Under the pieces are notes generated by a model. The model saw only the letters and a list, made by a program, of their open reading frames with translations, ran no database searches and had not been told where the DNA came from. A stretch of 64,000 nt of DNA from the NCBI GenBank assembly GCA_964402415.1, contig CAYOCI010000001.1, positions 14,323 through 78,322 on the forward strand, written 5' to 3'. This stretch comes from an uncultured Clostridia bacterium. GTDB taxonomy: Bacteria > Bacillota > JAAYKD01 > CAYOCI01. Shown here one piece after another: positions 29,496 through 63,469 of the stretch. The first letter of the stretch is position 1. Every line of letters begins with the position of its first letter. Made by a program: the position numbers and the translations under genes.

Positions 29496-30353
29496 TTAAT
29501 ATGTCCCCACGATCAAGGGCGTACCAATCCTTATTATAACGGTGTTTTGCTCGGACGCATAGCGTGTCGCAATCTGCAGATTGAGTTTATTGTGCCCTAC
29601 CTTGATCTGATCGGGTAGGCGGGTGGTAAAGCCGGACCAGCTCTCGAGATTCTCCCCGCTGACACCTTCGGTGATGGTTGCTTTCAACGAGGTGAAGGCC
29701 TTCCCTATAAGATCCTTCTGTGTACGCGCGATTCGTTCTGGGGGTAGGGTACCGGAGATCGTGACGAGGACAGGGGTCTTGTCTCCGGGACGGAGTTGGT
29801 GGACCAGGTCACGCAGCTGGCGTTCAGTATCGACAAGGGCCCCTGCGTGGACGGCGGTGAGGGATATCTGCAACTCCACCTGTTGATACCAGAGCTTAGC
29901 AACCGGGTGGAGACGAATGGACAGAGTGTGATCCTGTGAGCTGGATACGTTAAGGCGGGTTTCACCGGACAGCGTGCTAATCGCAGGCCCGCGAAAGCCC
30001 AAGCCCTCAGCCAAGGCCAGGACAAAGGCGGATGGGTCCTCGGGGGCGGGCAGGCGCAAGGTGGTTATCAGCTCGGCGACAGGGTCGTCGATATTGTGGC
30101 GTTGGACAAGGTCAAGTAACGACGGAGACGCAAGCGGCTCGGTATGGGGGAAGAAGGCGGATGTGAAGGCGGCGATGGTGATGAGTAGGATGATTACGGG
30201 GATGATGCGAGGGAGTCCCCCGCCCCTCGCCCCTCGCCCCTCGCGAGTCGGTAACGAGCTCGACCCGGGCCGTGGGCCGCTGTGGGTGACCCGCTGTGGA
30301 CTGTGGACTGTGAACTGTGGACTCTTCTTCACAATTATCCCCTCCCTATGCAT
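29496..30353 (-). CDS. hypothetical membrane-anchored protein at the ywmB-syntenic position
   Basis: One TM helix (IIPVIILLITIAAFTSAFF) followed by an uncharacterized domain. The N-terminal roughly 45 residues are encoded by CTGTGGA and CCCCTCG repeats (REGRGARGGG), so the true start is uncertain. Confidence 0.35.
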   Translation of the reverse strand: MHREGIIVKKSPQFTVHSPQRVTHSGPRPGSSSLPTREGRGARGGGLPRIIPVIILLITIAAFTSAFFPHTEPLASPSLLDLVQRHNIDDPVAELITTLRLPAPEDPSAFVLALAEGLGFRGPAISTLSGETRLNVSSSQDHTLSIRLHPVAKLWYQQVELQISLTAVHAGALVDTERQLRDLVHQLRPGDKTPVLVTISGTLPPERIARTQKDLIGKAFTSLKATITEGVSGENLESWSGFTTRLPDQIKVGHNKLNLQIATRYASEQNTVIIRIGTPLIVGTY

Positions 30354-30649
30354 AGTGTTGCCAAGGTGAGGGGAAGGTAAACGGTTGGAGAGTCCATGAG
30401 TCGAGTCACCAAGCTCCCAAGGCACCAGGCCACCAGTGGGGCGGGATGGGTTAAAAAAACCATAGGAGCGCAGTGAGGCCGGGGGGGCGAATGGCGCAGC
30501 CTATCACGATTTGTCCAAATCGCTATCGGTGAGACATGGCTGCGTTGCTACATGAGAACGGGTGCTAACTAAGGGGCATCACCGGAGAACGGCGGGCGCT
30601 GCATGGCGGCGCCCCTACGTGTGGATTCAGAGACGGGGCGACGGGAATC

Positions 30650-30680
30650 TGTTAACTTAGGGGTCTGACCCCTAAGTTAA
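30650..30680. repeat. perfect 31-bp palindromic element GTTAAC-TTA-GGGGTC-T-GACCCC-TAA-GTTAAC (family member)
   Basis: Perfect dyad 44 nt 3' of the atpD stop. Related copies lie at about 24592-24628, 40468-40498, 50405-50426 and 56396-56427. Confidence 0.7.
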
Positions 30681-62100: not shown

Positions 62101-62806
62101 GAATGTTGAGCAGACCGCCAGTGAGCTGACCTTGAGCCACAACATCATTGGGAGCAACAAGCGAAGGATCCTTGATCTCGTATTTCCAGACGCTGCTAGA
62201 AGGTGCGATAGCACCAAGGGCATCCCGCATGGTGACGCGGATATTAGCGGCTTTGCCGGAGACGAGCTTCAGATCATCGGCGTTAGCTTCCATGGTGAAG
62301 ACCGGCAGAGCAGGTGCTGCGGTGACGACCATGTTAGTTCCGCCCAAGAGCGCCACAGCACTACCTAGGCTAGCGAAGTCGGTAGCACTACCCTTAACGG
62401 TCGTACCGCCGTAATTGCTAGTAGCAGCACCATTAACGATAGGCAGCTCAATGGTGTCGGTTAACAGACCGGTCGCATGGGTATAAACAGCCTTGGTGGC
62501 TGTGGAATTAGTGGCGTCCTTTGCCCAGTTGGTACCAACTGTAGCAGGCAATGTGCCAAAGGAGTGACCGGTAGCACCGAGGTCCACCGCGATCACTTTC
62601 GTGGCAGCGTCAAACTGCATCTGGACAACCATCGTGCTAGCCAGGCCAGTCACAGTGCTAGCACCAGTCTTGTAGGCGATGCTTGCCACGTCTGCTGCGA
62701 GCACAATGCCGCTGAACAGGCTCATGACCATCGCCATGGTGCAGAGCAGAGCAAAGAATTTCCTTGCGTTCTTCAAGGTTTTCCCTCCTGTAATACTAAT
62801 TTTCAT
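59147..62806 (-). CDS. large secreted cell-surface (S-layer-associated-like) protein with Ig-like domains and two C-terminal copper-amine-oxidase-N-terminal-like repeats
   Basis: Signal peptide MKISITGGKTLKNARKFFALLCTMAMVMSLFSGIVLAAD after an AGGAGA SD at 62806. A Thr/Val/Ala-rich beta-rich body. The C-terminus holds two repeats of the stalk motif (GAPAAVAAPYLKGNSTMVPFRFIGEALGAYVEY and GEAVAMPVAPEINNSRTMVPLRFISEALGAYVEY). The ORF-track extension to 63235 is leader DNA. Confidence 0.65.
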   Translation of the reverse strand: MKISITGGKTLKNARKFFALLCTMAMVMSLFSGIVLAADVASIAYKTGASTVTGLASTMVVQMQFDAATKVIAVDLGATGHSFGTLPATVGTNWAKDATNSTATKAVYTHATGLLTDTIELPIVNGAATSNYGGTTVKGSATDFASLGSAVALLGGTNMVVTAAPALPVFTMEANADDLKLVSGKAANIRVTMRDALGAIAPSSSVWKYEIKDPSLVAPNDVVAQGQLTGGLLNIPVTLNLPEANGIYTKVQGNYNLVITKVDSSATVNLYPTSSNAVVVQHDLQVNDLGGLNKGEVAVVSGKLVNGLGYPVKSAWVELYSGATLLASTRVSDYDGSFAMHYAFSSAGRYLLKVGITGQAAVQYKDLDVRFGDALALSLIKSPEHTQDPYQKIKYSIALDKAPVSPDLLTLFSGTTQVAGTVSLVAAESSSTKNVYEFTPTTALGVGEYTLTAKHTLLGGTTYAYVKEVKFVVSTAKSGLSLNPGAGANLDGSDLYPQAALTRLDIRVYDKNGSATVVPTATSSTPDALKKVTYTVTGPFAGGEINYDSEVDGQQAGFHNVELEQAGEIAVTAKVTYGSGTQETFTKKLTVNGWVVTTEKSLGAIGDGDVTLTAKVTTTSGTPVANAIVTWTSPSPSFRVKNADAVSGYNGASVSTNRNGATTNIVDGTYSRTVRLVEASDNVTILVTTQGGATRAVFKGSIDGNPVYTVTTDKTSLVAGVAQDINVKVTDADGKTVKPEAISIKSSLAIGKFADQSITDGQWVDTNADGVNDSFRFTITPLKPETFSIKVSTHAGRNFGKTDVTVAKPTVTVTPDDGMVTASVKEAFSVALNDNVTNGGWVRLSVIGGSAKVYLPSNAMAVKEITPGDPYAFTTRSATHNFEILAVDDENNKIENPEIKIEVAYGSNAGGSLIYTEVARLAITPAVIEVNKEEITGGMATPVIVTVKDVHGNVLANKTVQAAGVAATSGVTDNDGKTTIVLNAVSTGNVKFTVNGLQGAEKTIKANADETKPEIDVTAPERTTANSVIVKGKVTDNVKVTEIYVNGAKVLFVPGAEATINAKVALEIGVNNIEIYAFDAAGNANTKTITVVRAMPTVVKLALGAADATIDGAPAAVAAPYLKGNSTMVPFRFIGEALGAYVEYADVAGTQTVTFSLDGINVVLTIGSTTAMVNGEAVAMPVAPEINNSRTMVPLRFISEALGAYVEYNPANGGITVTR

Positions 62807-63469
62807 GGTTTCTCCTGGGTGGGTAGCCCCATCGGTTGGACCGGGACCCCTCCTTTCTATGTAGGTGGTTGGGCTGTGGAACGTGTAAACTGCCCTATGC
62901 TCATCGTCCATGAGAGGACGGAGAAGCCATTCTTGAGTCCCTCGCCCCTCGAGAGCTTGAAGACGGATGGGTAGGGAGTTGCGGGCGAGTTGGCAGGACG
63001 GAAACGGACACAGAGATGAGGAAATGGCGATACGAGCATACGAGTCTTCACGATTGTCATTATAGGTGGGAGTTTCCAATGGGTCAATGAGGTTGGTGGA
63101 ACTGTAAAATAGGTGTAATGTGTGTAATGGTTGCATAACACGGCGGAAAGTGGTGTCATGTGTAGTAATTGGTATTCGCATGGGGGCTGGAAGAATCCTG
63201 TTGGGATATGTGAGTGTAACAAAACTGTAACGCAATCAGGCAAGCCTCGGTGCGTTACAGTTGGTACCTCGGCCCTCGCCCTAGCCCCGTCGAGTTGGAG
63301 TCAAGAAGGGGATGCTGGGGACCATAGCACGAAACGCCCACCGTTCCTCGGGCGGGTCAGCGATGGCCCCATTCGTCCCCCACGAGGGGCGGGGCCGAGG
63401 GGCATGAAGCTCCTGCGAAACGGTAAGAAGAGCGACCCCCGAAGGGATCGCTCTTCTTGTTTCGTAGTC

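Follow-up and report, generated by a model that had tools for sequence, protein, structure and literature searches.

Tandem heptamer arrays in an uncultured Clostridia bacterium and their link to PF05635 gene cassettes

The 64,000-nt window analyzed here (contig CAYOCI010000001.1, positions 14,323-78,322, forward strand) comes from an uncultured Clostridia bacterium, and the spacers between its housekeeping genes hold many short tandem arrays of 7-nt units. All coordinates are positions in this window unless another locus is named. Genes were mapped by Pfam annotation, with the spoIIID gene read directly from the sequence. Most of the arrays are the arms of discrete cassettes, not loose microsatellites, and four of the cassettes enclose a gene of the PF05635/TIGR02436 family, whose members are annotated as '23S rRNA intervening sequence protein', 'four helix bundle protein', or S23p.

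Heptamer arrays, their pairing, and the genes they bracket

A single scoring rule (score of at least 11) detects 34 arrays at period 7 and 4 at period 8, with none at period 6 or 9; in 30 simulations of the window under a second-order Markov model the means are 0.07, 0.03, and 0.03, so that about 0.07 arrays would be expected at period 7. With Tandem Repeats Finder, the period-7 count is about 60. The arrays span 17.9-58.5 kb, and the first therefore lies well before the 30.2 kb from which the initial annotation had them begin. A typical array holds 4.0-4.7 units in 28-33 nt, and all of the families named in the initial annotation are present at roughly the counts given: CCCCTCG (about 11 arrays), CATCAGG/AGGCATC (11), TCATAAG (4), TAGGGAC (5), TTAAGAA (3), and CCACAGA/CTGTGGA with its relatives (more than 10). 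There are at least seven unit families. A unit length of always 7 was also claimed, and this holds for most arrays; the 'CACCAAG' family and several AGTCCACA arrays (17890, 22690, 24351, 24459, 25686, 26288, 35932) are octamers, which form a minority. Written in a single orientation, the units make up a mutational network (AGTCCCT, CGCCCCT, AGTCCAC, AGACCAC, AGCCCAC, AGCCCGC, AGCCATC, AGGCATC, AGTCATA, AGAATTA) that also takes in the octamers AGTCCACA and AG(T/C)CACCA, and families are bridged by mixed-unit arrays such as CGAGGGG/CTAGGGG at 48255.

Comparison of the Pfam gene map with the array positions places the arrays mainly in non-coding spacers, as the initial annotation had it, and confirms the spacers that it cited within operons: those between the V-type ATPase C and E genes (35879-36111), between the E and K genes (36712-37025), and between two FlgG-like rod genes. 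The exceptions to an intergenic location lie inside prmC and sua5, where array and hairpin material is read in frame. No arrays were found at 1-17.8 kb. Positions 1-17800 are occupied by tightly packed polysaccharide biosynthesis genes with a GC content of 47-52%, compared with about 58-60% elsewhere, and this block could be either a recent acquisition or a region that offers no spacers for arrays to occupy. Two of the window arrays are reproduced by a Logan assembly contig (L001, run DRR182650), which may derive from the source reads of this metagenome-assembled genome (MAG) itself and which ends inside an array. Given this contig and the arrays at orthologous sites in a related genome described below, an assembly artifact is not the obvious reading. 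Rfam returned no match anywhere in the window at gathering thresholds, and thus no known RNA family describes these elements.

The arrays often occur in inverted pairs, as had been remarked, and we count at least 14 such pairs, all with the same polarity, 5'-(AGNCNNN)n ... (reverse complement)n-3'. Paired arms are 20-37 nt long with 22-33 complementary positions, and are separated by an inner distance of 100-180 nt, or of 500-1170 nt when a gene intervenes. The inverted repeat often runs a few bases past the arrays, adding TGGG at the inner edge and GG at the outer edge. When the transcribed strand is folded as RNA, the arms are predicted to close a stem of about 30 bp (z-scores against shuffles for the elements at 57435 and 52348 and for IVP2 are in Table 1), and the window arms thus share with intervening sequences (IVSs) the ability of the terminal inverted repeats to form a stem of about 28 bp. 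Within 41 kb there are 4 gene-bearing copies and more than 25 gene-less arrays or pairs.

Each of the four PF05635 genes, in the cassettes labeled IVP1 to IVP4, is bracketed by inverted arrays of its own family: the AG(T/C)CACCA octamer, AGTCCAC, AGGCATC, and CCCCTCG, respectively. By our own calculation, four paralogs would carry four different families about 35% of the time by chance with 7 families to draw from, so this pattern is not significant alone. IVP3 also encloses a dCMP deaminase gene (43249-43710) whose stop codon is supplied by the 3' arm, and the gene list of the related locus L002 has no PF05635 gene at this site. IVP4 is antisense to the neighboring genes glpX and rpmE and comes with a promoter-like site and an intrinsic terminator (56284-56311) of its own; its ortholog, the sole PF05635 gene of L002 (L002 6945-7298), is bracketed by AGTCCCT arrays. 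The five genes, four in the window and one in L002, are intact and 47-68% identical, and non-synonymous divergence (pN) is far below synonymous divergence (pS), which is saturated, indicating that selection maintains them. Among solved structures, the closest is that of the Xanthomonas campestris protein XCC0516 (2GSC, E=7.6e-29), which has been described as a homopentamer of four-helix bundles; its entry contains five chains, as does that of another solved homolog, 2RLD. PADLOC, consulted for a link to defense systems, gave no match for the cassette proteins. A possible fifth PF05635 remnant (tblastn, 41285-41464, E=4e-5) was rejected as spurious, since it lies antisense inside the epimerase gene and translates to no recognizable protein. 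Directly 3' of IVP1 and 5' of the ribosome-binding site of the next gene is a near-perfect hairpin of about 57 nt (CGTGAGTCTACCCGTATGCGGCAG...CTGCCGCATACGGGTAGACTCACG, 25622-25680, minus strand) that is not followed by a T-run.

About ten further arm pairs enclose 70-180 nt with no open reading frame (ORF), and six of these cores contain a hairpin resembling repetitive extragenic palindromic (REP) sequences, GTAGGGGCGC(Y)GCCATGC(N)GCGCCC, which has the GTAG-plus-palindrome form. There are 8 copies of it in the window compared with 0.1 expected (Table 1), one inverted doublet among them (49421+/49540-), and no REP-associated tyrosine transposase (RAYT) gene was seen in the window. Exact copies are found at loci lacking arrays in Candidatus Obscuribacterales MAGs, and copies without arrays also occur in another uncultured MAG. 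The hairpin is therefore a component separate from the arrays, and we rejected it as an array marker.

Table 1 Cassettes, gene-less elements, and arrays of the window. REP, REP-like hairpin; coordinates are window positions.
Feature	Position	Strand	Details
IVP1 (spoIID-like and spoIIQ-like neighbors)	25686-26322	-	octamer arms AG(T/C)CACCA 25686-25717 and 26288-26322; ORF 25805-26170, 121 aa; Pfam E=6e-35; TIGR02436
IVP2 (murA-like and spoIID-like neighbors)	27386-27994	-	arms AGTCCAC/AGACCAC 27386-27416 and 27965-27994; ORF 27493-27876, 127 aa; Pfam E=2.6e-38; fold z=-4.1
IVP3	43237-44169	-	AGGCATC arms 43237-43260 and 44147-44169; PF05635 ORF 43710-44117; Pfam E=2.2e-41
IVP4	55819-56365	+	arms CCCCTCG 55819-55845 and degenerate CGAGGGG 56342-56365; ORF 55929-56282, 117 aa; tblastn 100% to P0129
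Gene-less element inside prmC	52348-52558	-	(CCCCTCG)4, 152-nt core with REP 52428-52452, (CGAGGGG)4; fold z=-8.25
sua5 array and REP material, in frame	49181-49564	-	(ACTGTGG) 49181-49205; REP doublet 49421-49445 (+) and 49540-49564 (-)
Element, prfA/prmC spacer	52915-53091		CCCCTCG arm pair; REP 52981-53005; nested (ACTGTGG)3.4 at 53009-53032
Element, tal/glpX spacer	57435-57591		AGTCATA arm pair; fold z=-6.8; absent from L002 (31-nt spacer)
Element, spo0F-like/tal spacer	58277-58453		AGTCATA arm pair; absent from L002
Element, V-type ATPase E/K spacer	36819-37000		CCCCTCG-type arms; REP 36912-36936
Element upstream of UDP-GlcNAc 2-epimerase gene	41671-41900		AGCCCAC/AGCCCGC arm pair
Element(s), glyA/upp spacer	44839-45067		AGCCATC/AGGCATC arms 44839-44867, 44886-44908, 45048-45067
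Element, rpiB/DUF436 spacer	47101-47250		AGCCATC arm pair; L002 spacer 16 nt, empty
Element, prmC/amidohydrolase spacer	51625-51812		AGCCATC arm pair; arms overlap both gene ends
Arrays flanking second FlgG-like rod gene	21597-22829		AGTCCCT / ACTAGGG: 21597-21626, 22796-22829
Rod-gene spacer			REP 21820-21844; further array 21431-21460
V-type ATPase C/E spacer	35932-36114		octamer array 35932-35964; GTAGGGGCGC hairpin 36010; (ACTAGGG)5.6 at 36076-36114
spoIIQ-like/spoIIID spacer complex	24315-24515		CCACAGA heptamer and AGTCCACA octamer arrays, duplicated with 108-nt period; 108-nt unit at 24318-24515 in 1.8 tandem copies, 93% identical; arrays all in one orientation, no partner arm
Solo arrays near V-type ATPase operon end	30217-30323		(CCCCTCG)4 30217-30244; (CTGTGGA)4.3 30294-30323; REP 30594-30618 nearby, upstream of operon end
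Solo arrays, DUF436/glyA spacer	46374-46499		AGCCCAC 46374-46404; ACTAGGG 46482-46499
LMWPc/rpiB spacer	48194-48277		REP 48194-48218; CGAGGGG/CTAGGGG array 48255-48277
Solo AGGCATC array, sua5/LMWPc spacer	48753-48773		
AT-rich AAGAATT-family arrays, amidohydrolase/sua5 spacer	50277-50402		50277-50295, 50367-50402
AAGAGTT/AAGAATT array, DUF1385/prfA spacer	54204-54262		about 6 units
Solo (CCCCTCG)3.4, DUF1385 gene 5' leader	55345-55371		
Solo AGTCATC/AGGCATC array	42999-43021		just upstream of Glycos_transf_4 gene start
First array of the window	17890-17921		octamer (AGTCCACA)4; 5' end of Polysacc_synt_2 gene
Solo octamer array	22690-22718		(AGCCACCA)3.6
Degenerate array, murA-like/DUF1779 spacer	29292-29322		(CAGCCAG)4.4

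Orthologous sites in a related genome and copies inside genes

The window genes fall into three runs: spo0F-like, tal, glpX, rpmE, DUF1385, prfA, prmC, amidohydrolase, sua5, ywlE-like, rpiB, DUF436 (ywlG), glyA, upp; spoIIQ-like, spoIID, murA, DUF1779; and spoIIID, mreB/mbl, and the two FlgG-like rod genes (flhO, flhP). These orders match the arrangement in Bacillus subtilis. The full set of V-type ATPase genes (I, K, E, C, F, A, B, D) forms an operon at 30724-39961, between the upp/mnaA-like genes and ywmB-murA-spoIID. B. subtilis has its F-type atp operon at this position, and the V-type operon looks like an in-place replacement.

The nearest genome, GCA_964540595.1, is also labeled 'uncultured Clostridia bacterium' and has a syntenic locus (L002); the RF1 proteins of the two fall in one 90% cluster, and the PrmC proteins are 70% identical. 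Arrays are present in 15 of 16 orthologous spacers in the window and in 5 of 16 in L002, where the AAGAATT family of the amidohydrolase/sua5 spacer is also found (L002 12524-12646). Alignment of filled and empty sites shows that the elements sit between a stop codon and the Shine-Dalgarno (SD) sequence of the next gene. At the filled sites 57413-57605 and 58254-58531 (L002 5750-5780 and 5006-5101, respectively), the start of the 5' arm falls within an AGGAG corresponding to the SD of the empty site, and a second SD comes after the 3' arm.

Where both genomes carry an element, the arms have changed as a whole. The inner sequences of the orthologous prmC inserts can be aligned, although the REP-like hairpin is flipped between them, and no unit in either arm is the same (CGAGGGG in the window, CTAGGGA in L002), with all of the changes compensatory. 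IVP4 and its L002 counterpart likewise have CGAGGGG and CTAGGGA, respectively, throughout both arms, again with compensatory changes and with inner sequences that can be aligned, and the orthologous array of the prfA/prmC spacer is heptameric in one genome and octameric in the other (AGTCCAC versus AGTCCACA). These compensatory switches of whole arms indicate that units are homogenized within an arm while the two arms are kept complementary. The homogenizing process could be slippage combined with hairpin-templated correction, or selection on the stem.

These comparisons bear on the possibility that the elements resemble MITEs (miniature transposable elements with inverted repeats), the arrays being terminal inverted repeats for a transposase encoded elsewhere and the PF05635 gene a passenger. 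The window elements have terminal inverted repeats; their arms are shared within families, they cluster in spacers, and filled and empty sites differ between two related genomes. However, no clear target-site duplication can be defined in the filled/empty alignments, no transposase turned up within or beside any cassette, either in the window or at the loci examined, and orthologous copies differ in their arms yet retain their inner sequence. A MITE descends from a transposase-encoding parent, whereas the sole ORF of the full-length copies encodes a four-helix-bundle protein, and this conserved ORF tracks the arm unit, which would be unexpected of passive cargo. We consider classical MITE-like transposition an unlikely account.

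Two genes carry copies in their coding sequence. The prmC element keeps the reading frame, encoding 71 aa that separate the PRPETE motif from the DIGTGSG motif; PrmC homologs of other Firmicutes lack it, and L002 PrmC has an insert at the matching site. In Sua5 the inserts occupy two sites, the linker between its domains and the Sua5_C domain itself, and both are filled in the window and in L002. The flanking Sua5 protein is near-identical in the two, and the inserts differ. With insert sites shared with L002, the PrmC and Sua5 copies are old; they keep the reading frame and are presumably translated. Arrays also disturb gene calling. Mechanical ORFs run through them at 40498-41871, 26321-27460, 54457-55422, and 51777-53111, producing spurious N-terminal extensions or odd starts, among them a 444-aa 'PrmC' and N-terminal extensions in the epimerase, SpoIID, and DUF1385 genes, and the deposited annotation is apparently affected as well (PrmC called as 295 aa). 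Array masking is needed when genes are called in such genomes.

PF05635 loci in metagenomes and the nature of the arrays

A metagenome scan with an alignment of the four PF05635 proteins as query returned 80 loci (194 kb) that are 39-54% identical to the query, with GC contents of 36-70% and a closest protein pair of 72% identity. These loci contain 95 arrays at period 7, compared with 11, 7, 8, and 5 at periods 5, 6, 8, and 9. Array density is 2.77 per kb at no more than 150 nt from the PF05635 gene and 0.07-0.29 per kb farther out, a 10-40-fold concentration. Among the 66 loci with enough flank, a heptamer array is present upstream in 35, downstream in 28, and on both sides in 19, and a bracketing inverted repeat (score of at least 14) is present in 32, compared with 3 in the direct-orientation control. 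In median terms, an array holds 4.4 units, 30 nt separate the end of the upstream array from the start codon, and 9 nt separate the stop codon from the downstream array. The upstream arm is rich in purines, with AG present in 39 of 42 cases compared with 61% expected, and in many cassettes its unit is AGGAG-like (AGGAGAC, AGGAGTC, AGGAGGT), so that the downstream arm resembles an anti-SD sequence. This is a hint that arm sequence and ribosome-binding sites are connected. Units vary between loci, and the more alike two proteins are, the smaller the distance between their units (Spearman -0.24; 0 of 1000 permutations reach so low a value), the mean unit distance being 1.96 at protein identities of at least 65% and 3.47 below 45%. 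In viral contigs we found only 3 relatives in 2.9 million, one of which shows bracketing arrays.

The simplest alternative is that the arrays are ordinary microsatellites, created and resized in tolerant spacers by replication slippage, which is said to favor 7-nt units in many bacteria, with no cassette and no link to a gene. Among long simple-sequence repeats, those with heptamer units are the most numerous in many bacterial genomes (cited in PMC4679880, PMC4692102), copy number varies among Coxiella strains, and orthologous arrays that differ by their whole-array unit, including AGTCCAC versus AGTCCACA, are what contraction and re-expansion would give. Slippage was also raised by the initial annotation, and it explains how units within an array become uniform; it does not explain why arrays pair in inverted orientation, keep to about 28-33 nt in length, and associate with genes. 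Slippage by itself gives no reverse-complement partner 70-900 nt away at constant polarity, no preference for about four units, no 10-40-fold concentration beside PF05635 genes in unrelated organisms, and no co-divergence of unit and protein, and we judge microsatellites to be a decidedly improbable explanation. A different proposal, made for the G-rich heptamers of Xanthomonas and Nostoc, is that such arrays are G-quadruplex or i-motif regulatory elements. (CGAGGGG)4 does contain four G-tracts, and PMC4692102 reads the four-unit preference as a G-quadruplex requirement, but most window families (AGTCATA, AAGAATT, AGCCATC, AGTCCAC) are unable to form one, and the metagenome loci prefer four units regardless of unit sequence. 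The families that are not G-rich refute G-quadruplexes as a general explanation, which we regard as highly improbable, and the proposal could still apply to the CCCCTCG family alone. Slippage, G-quadruplexes, and classical MITE transposition each explain part of the evidence and fail specific tests.

The pairing of unit with protein also allows the arrays to be read as binding sites of a pentameric PF05635 protein, with about one unit per subunit, acting as operator, translational control, packaging, or mobility signals more than as RNase III substrates. The homologs 2GSC and 2RLD have five chains each, the arrays hold about 4-5 units, each window paralog has its own unit family, unit and protein co-diverge, and upstream arrays, which are often AGGAG-like, lie a median distance of 30 nt from the start codon. 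The distant homolog Avd is reported to bind nucleic acid and a reverse transcriptase in diversity-generating retroelements (PMC6182149). On the other hand, binding would be putative for every member of the family, the chance calculation above takes most of the weight from the four families of the four paralogs, joint inheritance of gene and arms explains the co-divergence equally well, and Coxiella S23p appears not to be expressed. As a complete explanation of the arrays, this seems to us rather unlikely.

Array layout, gene association, unit-protein co-divergence, compensatory arms, in-frame copies, and gain and loss between relatives are observed directly, and we think that the arrays are probably the arms of IVS-type selfish cassettes and of gene-less derivatives of these. 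The repeat architecture recognized by the initial annotation stands within this explanation, which adds what had been missed: the cassette arms, the PF05635 genes, the GTAG cores, the octamers, and the translated copies. A full cassette would have some four tandem units (28-33 nt) as its 5' arm, followed by a short leader, the PF05635/TIGR02436 four-helix-bundle gene, and a reverse-complement 3' arm; most copies here lack the gene and keep the arms around a core of 70-180 nt, often with a REP-type GTAG hairpin. Cassettes would be co-transcribed with the host operon, and the arms are predicted by folding to pair into a near-perfect duplex of about 30 bp. By analogy with tested IVSs, RNase III may cut this duplex, which would release the cassette RNA and sever the polycistronic transcript between cistrons. 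Cleavage of the stems would mean such processing of nearly every operon in the region, the V-type ATPase operon included. Slippage may homogenize the units, with hairpin-templated correction, stem selection, or both keeping the arms complementary, as the pattern of compensatory arms suggests, and copies in coding DNA would survive only if the reading frame is kept, as it is in PrmC and Sua5.

Several observations weigh against this explanation. About 15 arrays have no detectable partner. The gene-less interiors show no significant similarity to the gene-bearing cassettes beyond a 13-nt subterminal identity (GGGTTTACGCGTC) between the 57435 element and the IVP4 leader, which is just above the shuffled maximum; this single match does not demonstrate that gene-less cores come from cassette leaders or trailers, and the putative descent of gene-less elements from gene-bearing cassettes is proposed from shared arms and architecture. 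Three alignments of filled and empty sites reveal no clear target-site duplication, and no known mobility enzyme was found. Arrays are seen at only about half of the metagenome PF05635 loci, and the 80 loci represent one clade of the family, the one nearest the query. Another two 8-kb stretches of the L002 MAG (L005 and L017) have the REP-like hairpin and no heptamer arrays, and array density is therefore very uneven within a genome. Transcription through the cassettes is putative, use of the arm duplex as an RNase III site is proposed by homology with tested IVSs, and a cleavable stem inside prmC or sua5 mRNA should be harmful, so these copies would have to be protected by translation or be poorly cut.

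A bolder extension is that PF05635 pentamers read their own heptamer arms, at about one subunit per 7-nt unit, and drive the maintenance or spread of the cassette, in which case short tandemly repeated repetitive (STRR) sequences, Xanthomonas heptamers, rRNA IVSs, and the window arrays would form one class of protein-guided mobile cassette. We offer this as a tentative possibility about which we are more doubtful than convinced. If true, it would answer both what STRRs are and what the IVS protein does.

Comparison with rRNA intervening sequences and other repeat systems

Earlier publications cover STRRs, the over-representation of heptamers, IVSs that carry an S23p ORF, and the heptamers in the Coxiella IVS. 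A search of literature available without subscription returned no paper that in general terms identifies heptamer arrays as PF05635 cassette arms, no statement that such cassettes mostly live outside rRNA genes, and no report of such proliferation in a Firmicute. The paper on the Beggiatoa TAACTGA repeats and its supplement do not mention S23p-type genes. The origin and function of tandem heptamer arrays in cyanobacteria, Xanthomonas, Beggiatoaceae, and others have been without consensus for decades, and the ORF-bearing 23S IVS, a known element from the early 1990s on, encodes a protein with no assigned role. Our evidence joins the two questions, as arrays are the arms of PF05635 cassettes across many unrelated organisms, and the rRNA IVS is then a rare case of a commoner element that mostly lives in ordinary spacers. 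For annotation, ORF calls extend through arrays and assemblies break at them.

One of the 80 metagenome loci lies in an rRNA gene. At this locus (L072, positions 1-530) a PF05635 cassette abuts bacterial large-subunit rRNA, and confident alignment resumes at about model position 1215. We estimate this to be roughly helix 45, the classical IVS site. Its arms are AGGGGCG/CGCCCCT units, shared with the commonest family of the window (CGAGGGG/CCCCTCG); on the coding strand the 5' arm is the purine-rich one at L072 and the C-rich one in IVP4. Classical IVSs sit in a helix of 23S or 16S rRNA, and RNase III removes them from the transcript without religation; such RNase III excision is known experimentally for Leptospira and Salmonella. 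In Coxiella burnetii, the IVS combines an S23p ORF with a 28-bp terminal stem, carries three to four tandem GACAGAT heptamers at its 5' end in strain-dependent copy number, and is cut by RNase III within the stem, as determined by in vitro assay and rapid amplification of cDNA ends (RACE) (PMC4990558). The window cassettes thus share with the ORF-bearing 23S IVSs of C. burnetii and Leptospira a PF05635/TIGR02436 gene between terminal inverted repeats and a stem of about 28 bp, and with the Coxiella IVS the heptameric repeats at the terminus. They differ in lying between, and occasionally inside, protein-coding genes, with none in an rRNA gene; the Coxiella ORF is decaying, whereas the window ORFs are under purifying selection, and most window elements lack the ORF.

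A parallel among heptamer arrays outside rRNA genes is in Xanthomonas campestris, which has 186 GGGAATC arrays with a preference for four units, 70 of them in convergent pairs, and in which a 28-nt, four-unit array (#15) overlaps the start of XCC0516, a PF05635 protein (Rehm et al. 2015, PMC4692102). As in the window, these arrays are found between aligned ORFs, at no more than about 50 nt from a gene end, prefer four units, and form inverted pairs. Xanthomonas has a single dominant unit, read as a G-quadruplex former, whereas the window has many families, most of them not G-rich, and PMC4692102 proposes no gene link. In Nostoc PCC 7120, inverted pairs are few and arrays reach 26 units (PMC4692102), and a 129-nt GGGGATT array lies 55 nt upstream of alr0549. 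This gene is annotated as encoding a four helix bundle protein.

Other systems resemble parts of the elements. The GTAG-prefixed, GC-rich hairpin found in several window cores, including one inverted doublet, recalls REP/REPIN-RAYT systems, but the arrays themselves are not REPs. Rickettsia palindromic elements form in-frame peptide inserts in genes, and PrmC and Sua5 similarly tolerate palindromic elements in frame within housekeeping proteins; the sequences and hosts are unrelated, and only a minority of window copies are in coding DNA. Avd, known from diversity-generating retroelements as binding nucleic acid and reverse transcriptase (PMC6182149), is a distant homolog of the cassette protein and likewise a pentameric four-helix bundle. 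The NCBIfam Avd model, however, gives only 24.8 and 20.3 bits against a cut-off of 80 bits, and the cassettes have housekeeping genes as neighbors. No reverse transcriptase was present among about 38 ORFs scanned and no template/variable repeat pair was noticed, in a window that was not searched exhaustively for either.

The STRRs of heterocystous cyanobacteria were the comparison drawn by the initial annotation, and an STRR-like architecture between co-oriented housekeeping genes of a Firmicute-like host is supported here. The units of STRR1-3 are CCCCAGT, TTGGTCA, and CAACAGT. STRRs and window arrays have in common several heptamer families per genome, a location in the spacers of co-oriented genes, and units that commonly start with AG(T)C; STRR1 rotates to AGTCCCC, which is close but not identical to AGTCCCT of the window. 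The window differs in its host, a Clostridia-like Firmicute of about 58% GC with Bacillus-type synteny and sporulation genes, and in its arrays, which are short, at about four units, and mostly arranged in inverted pairs.

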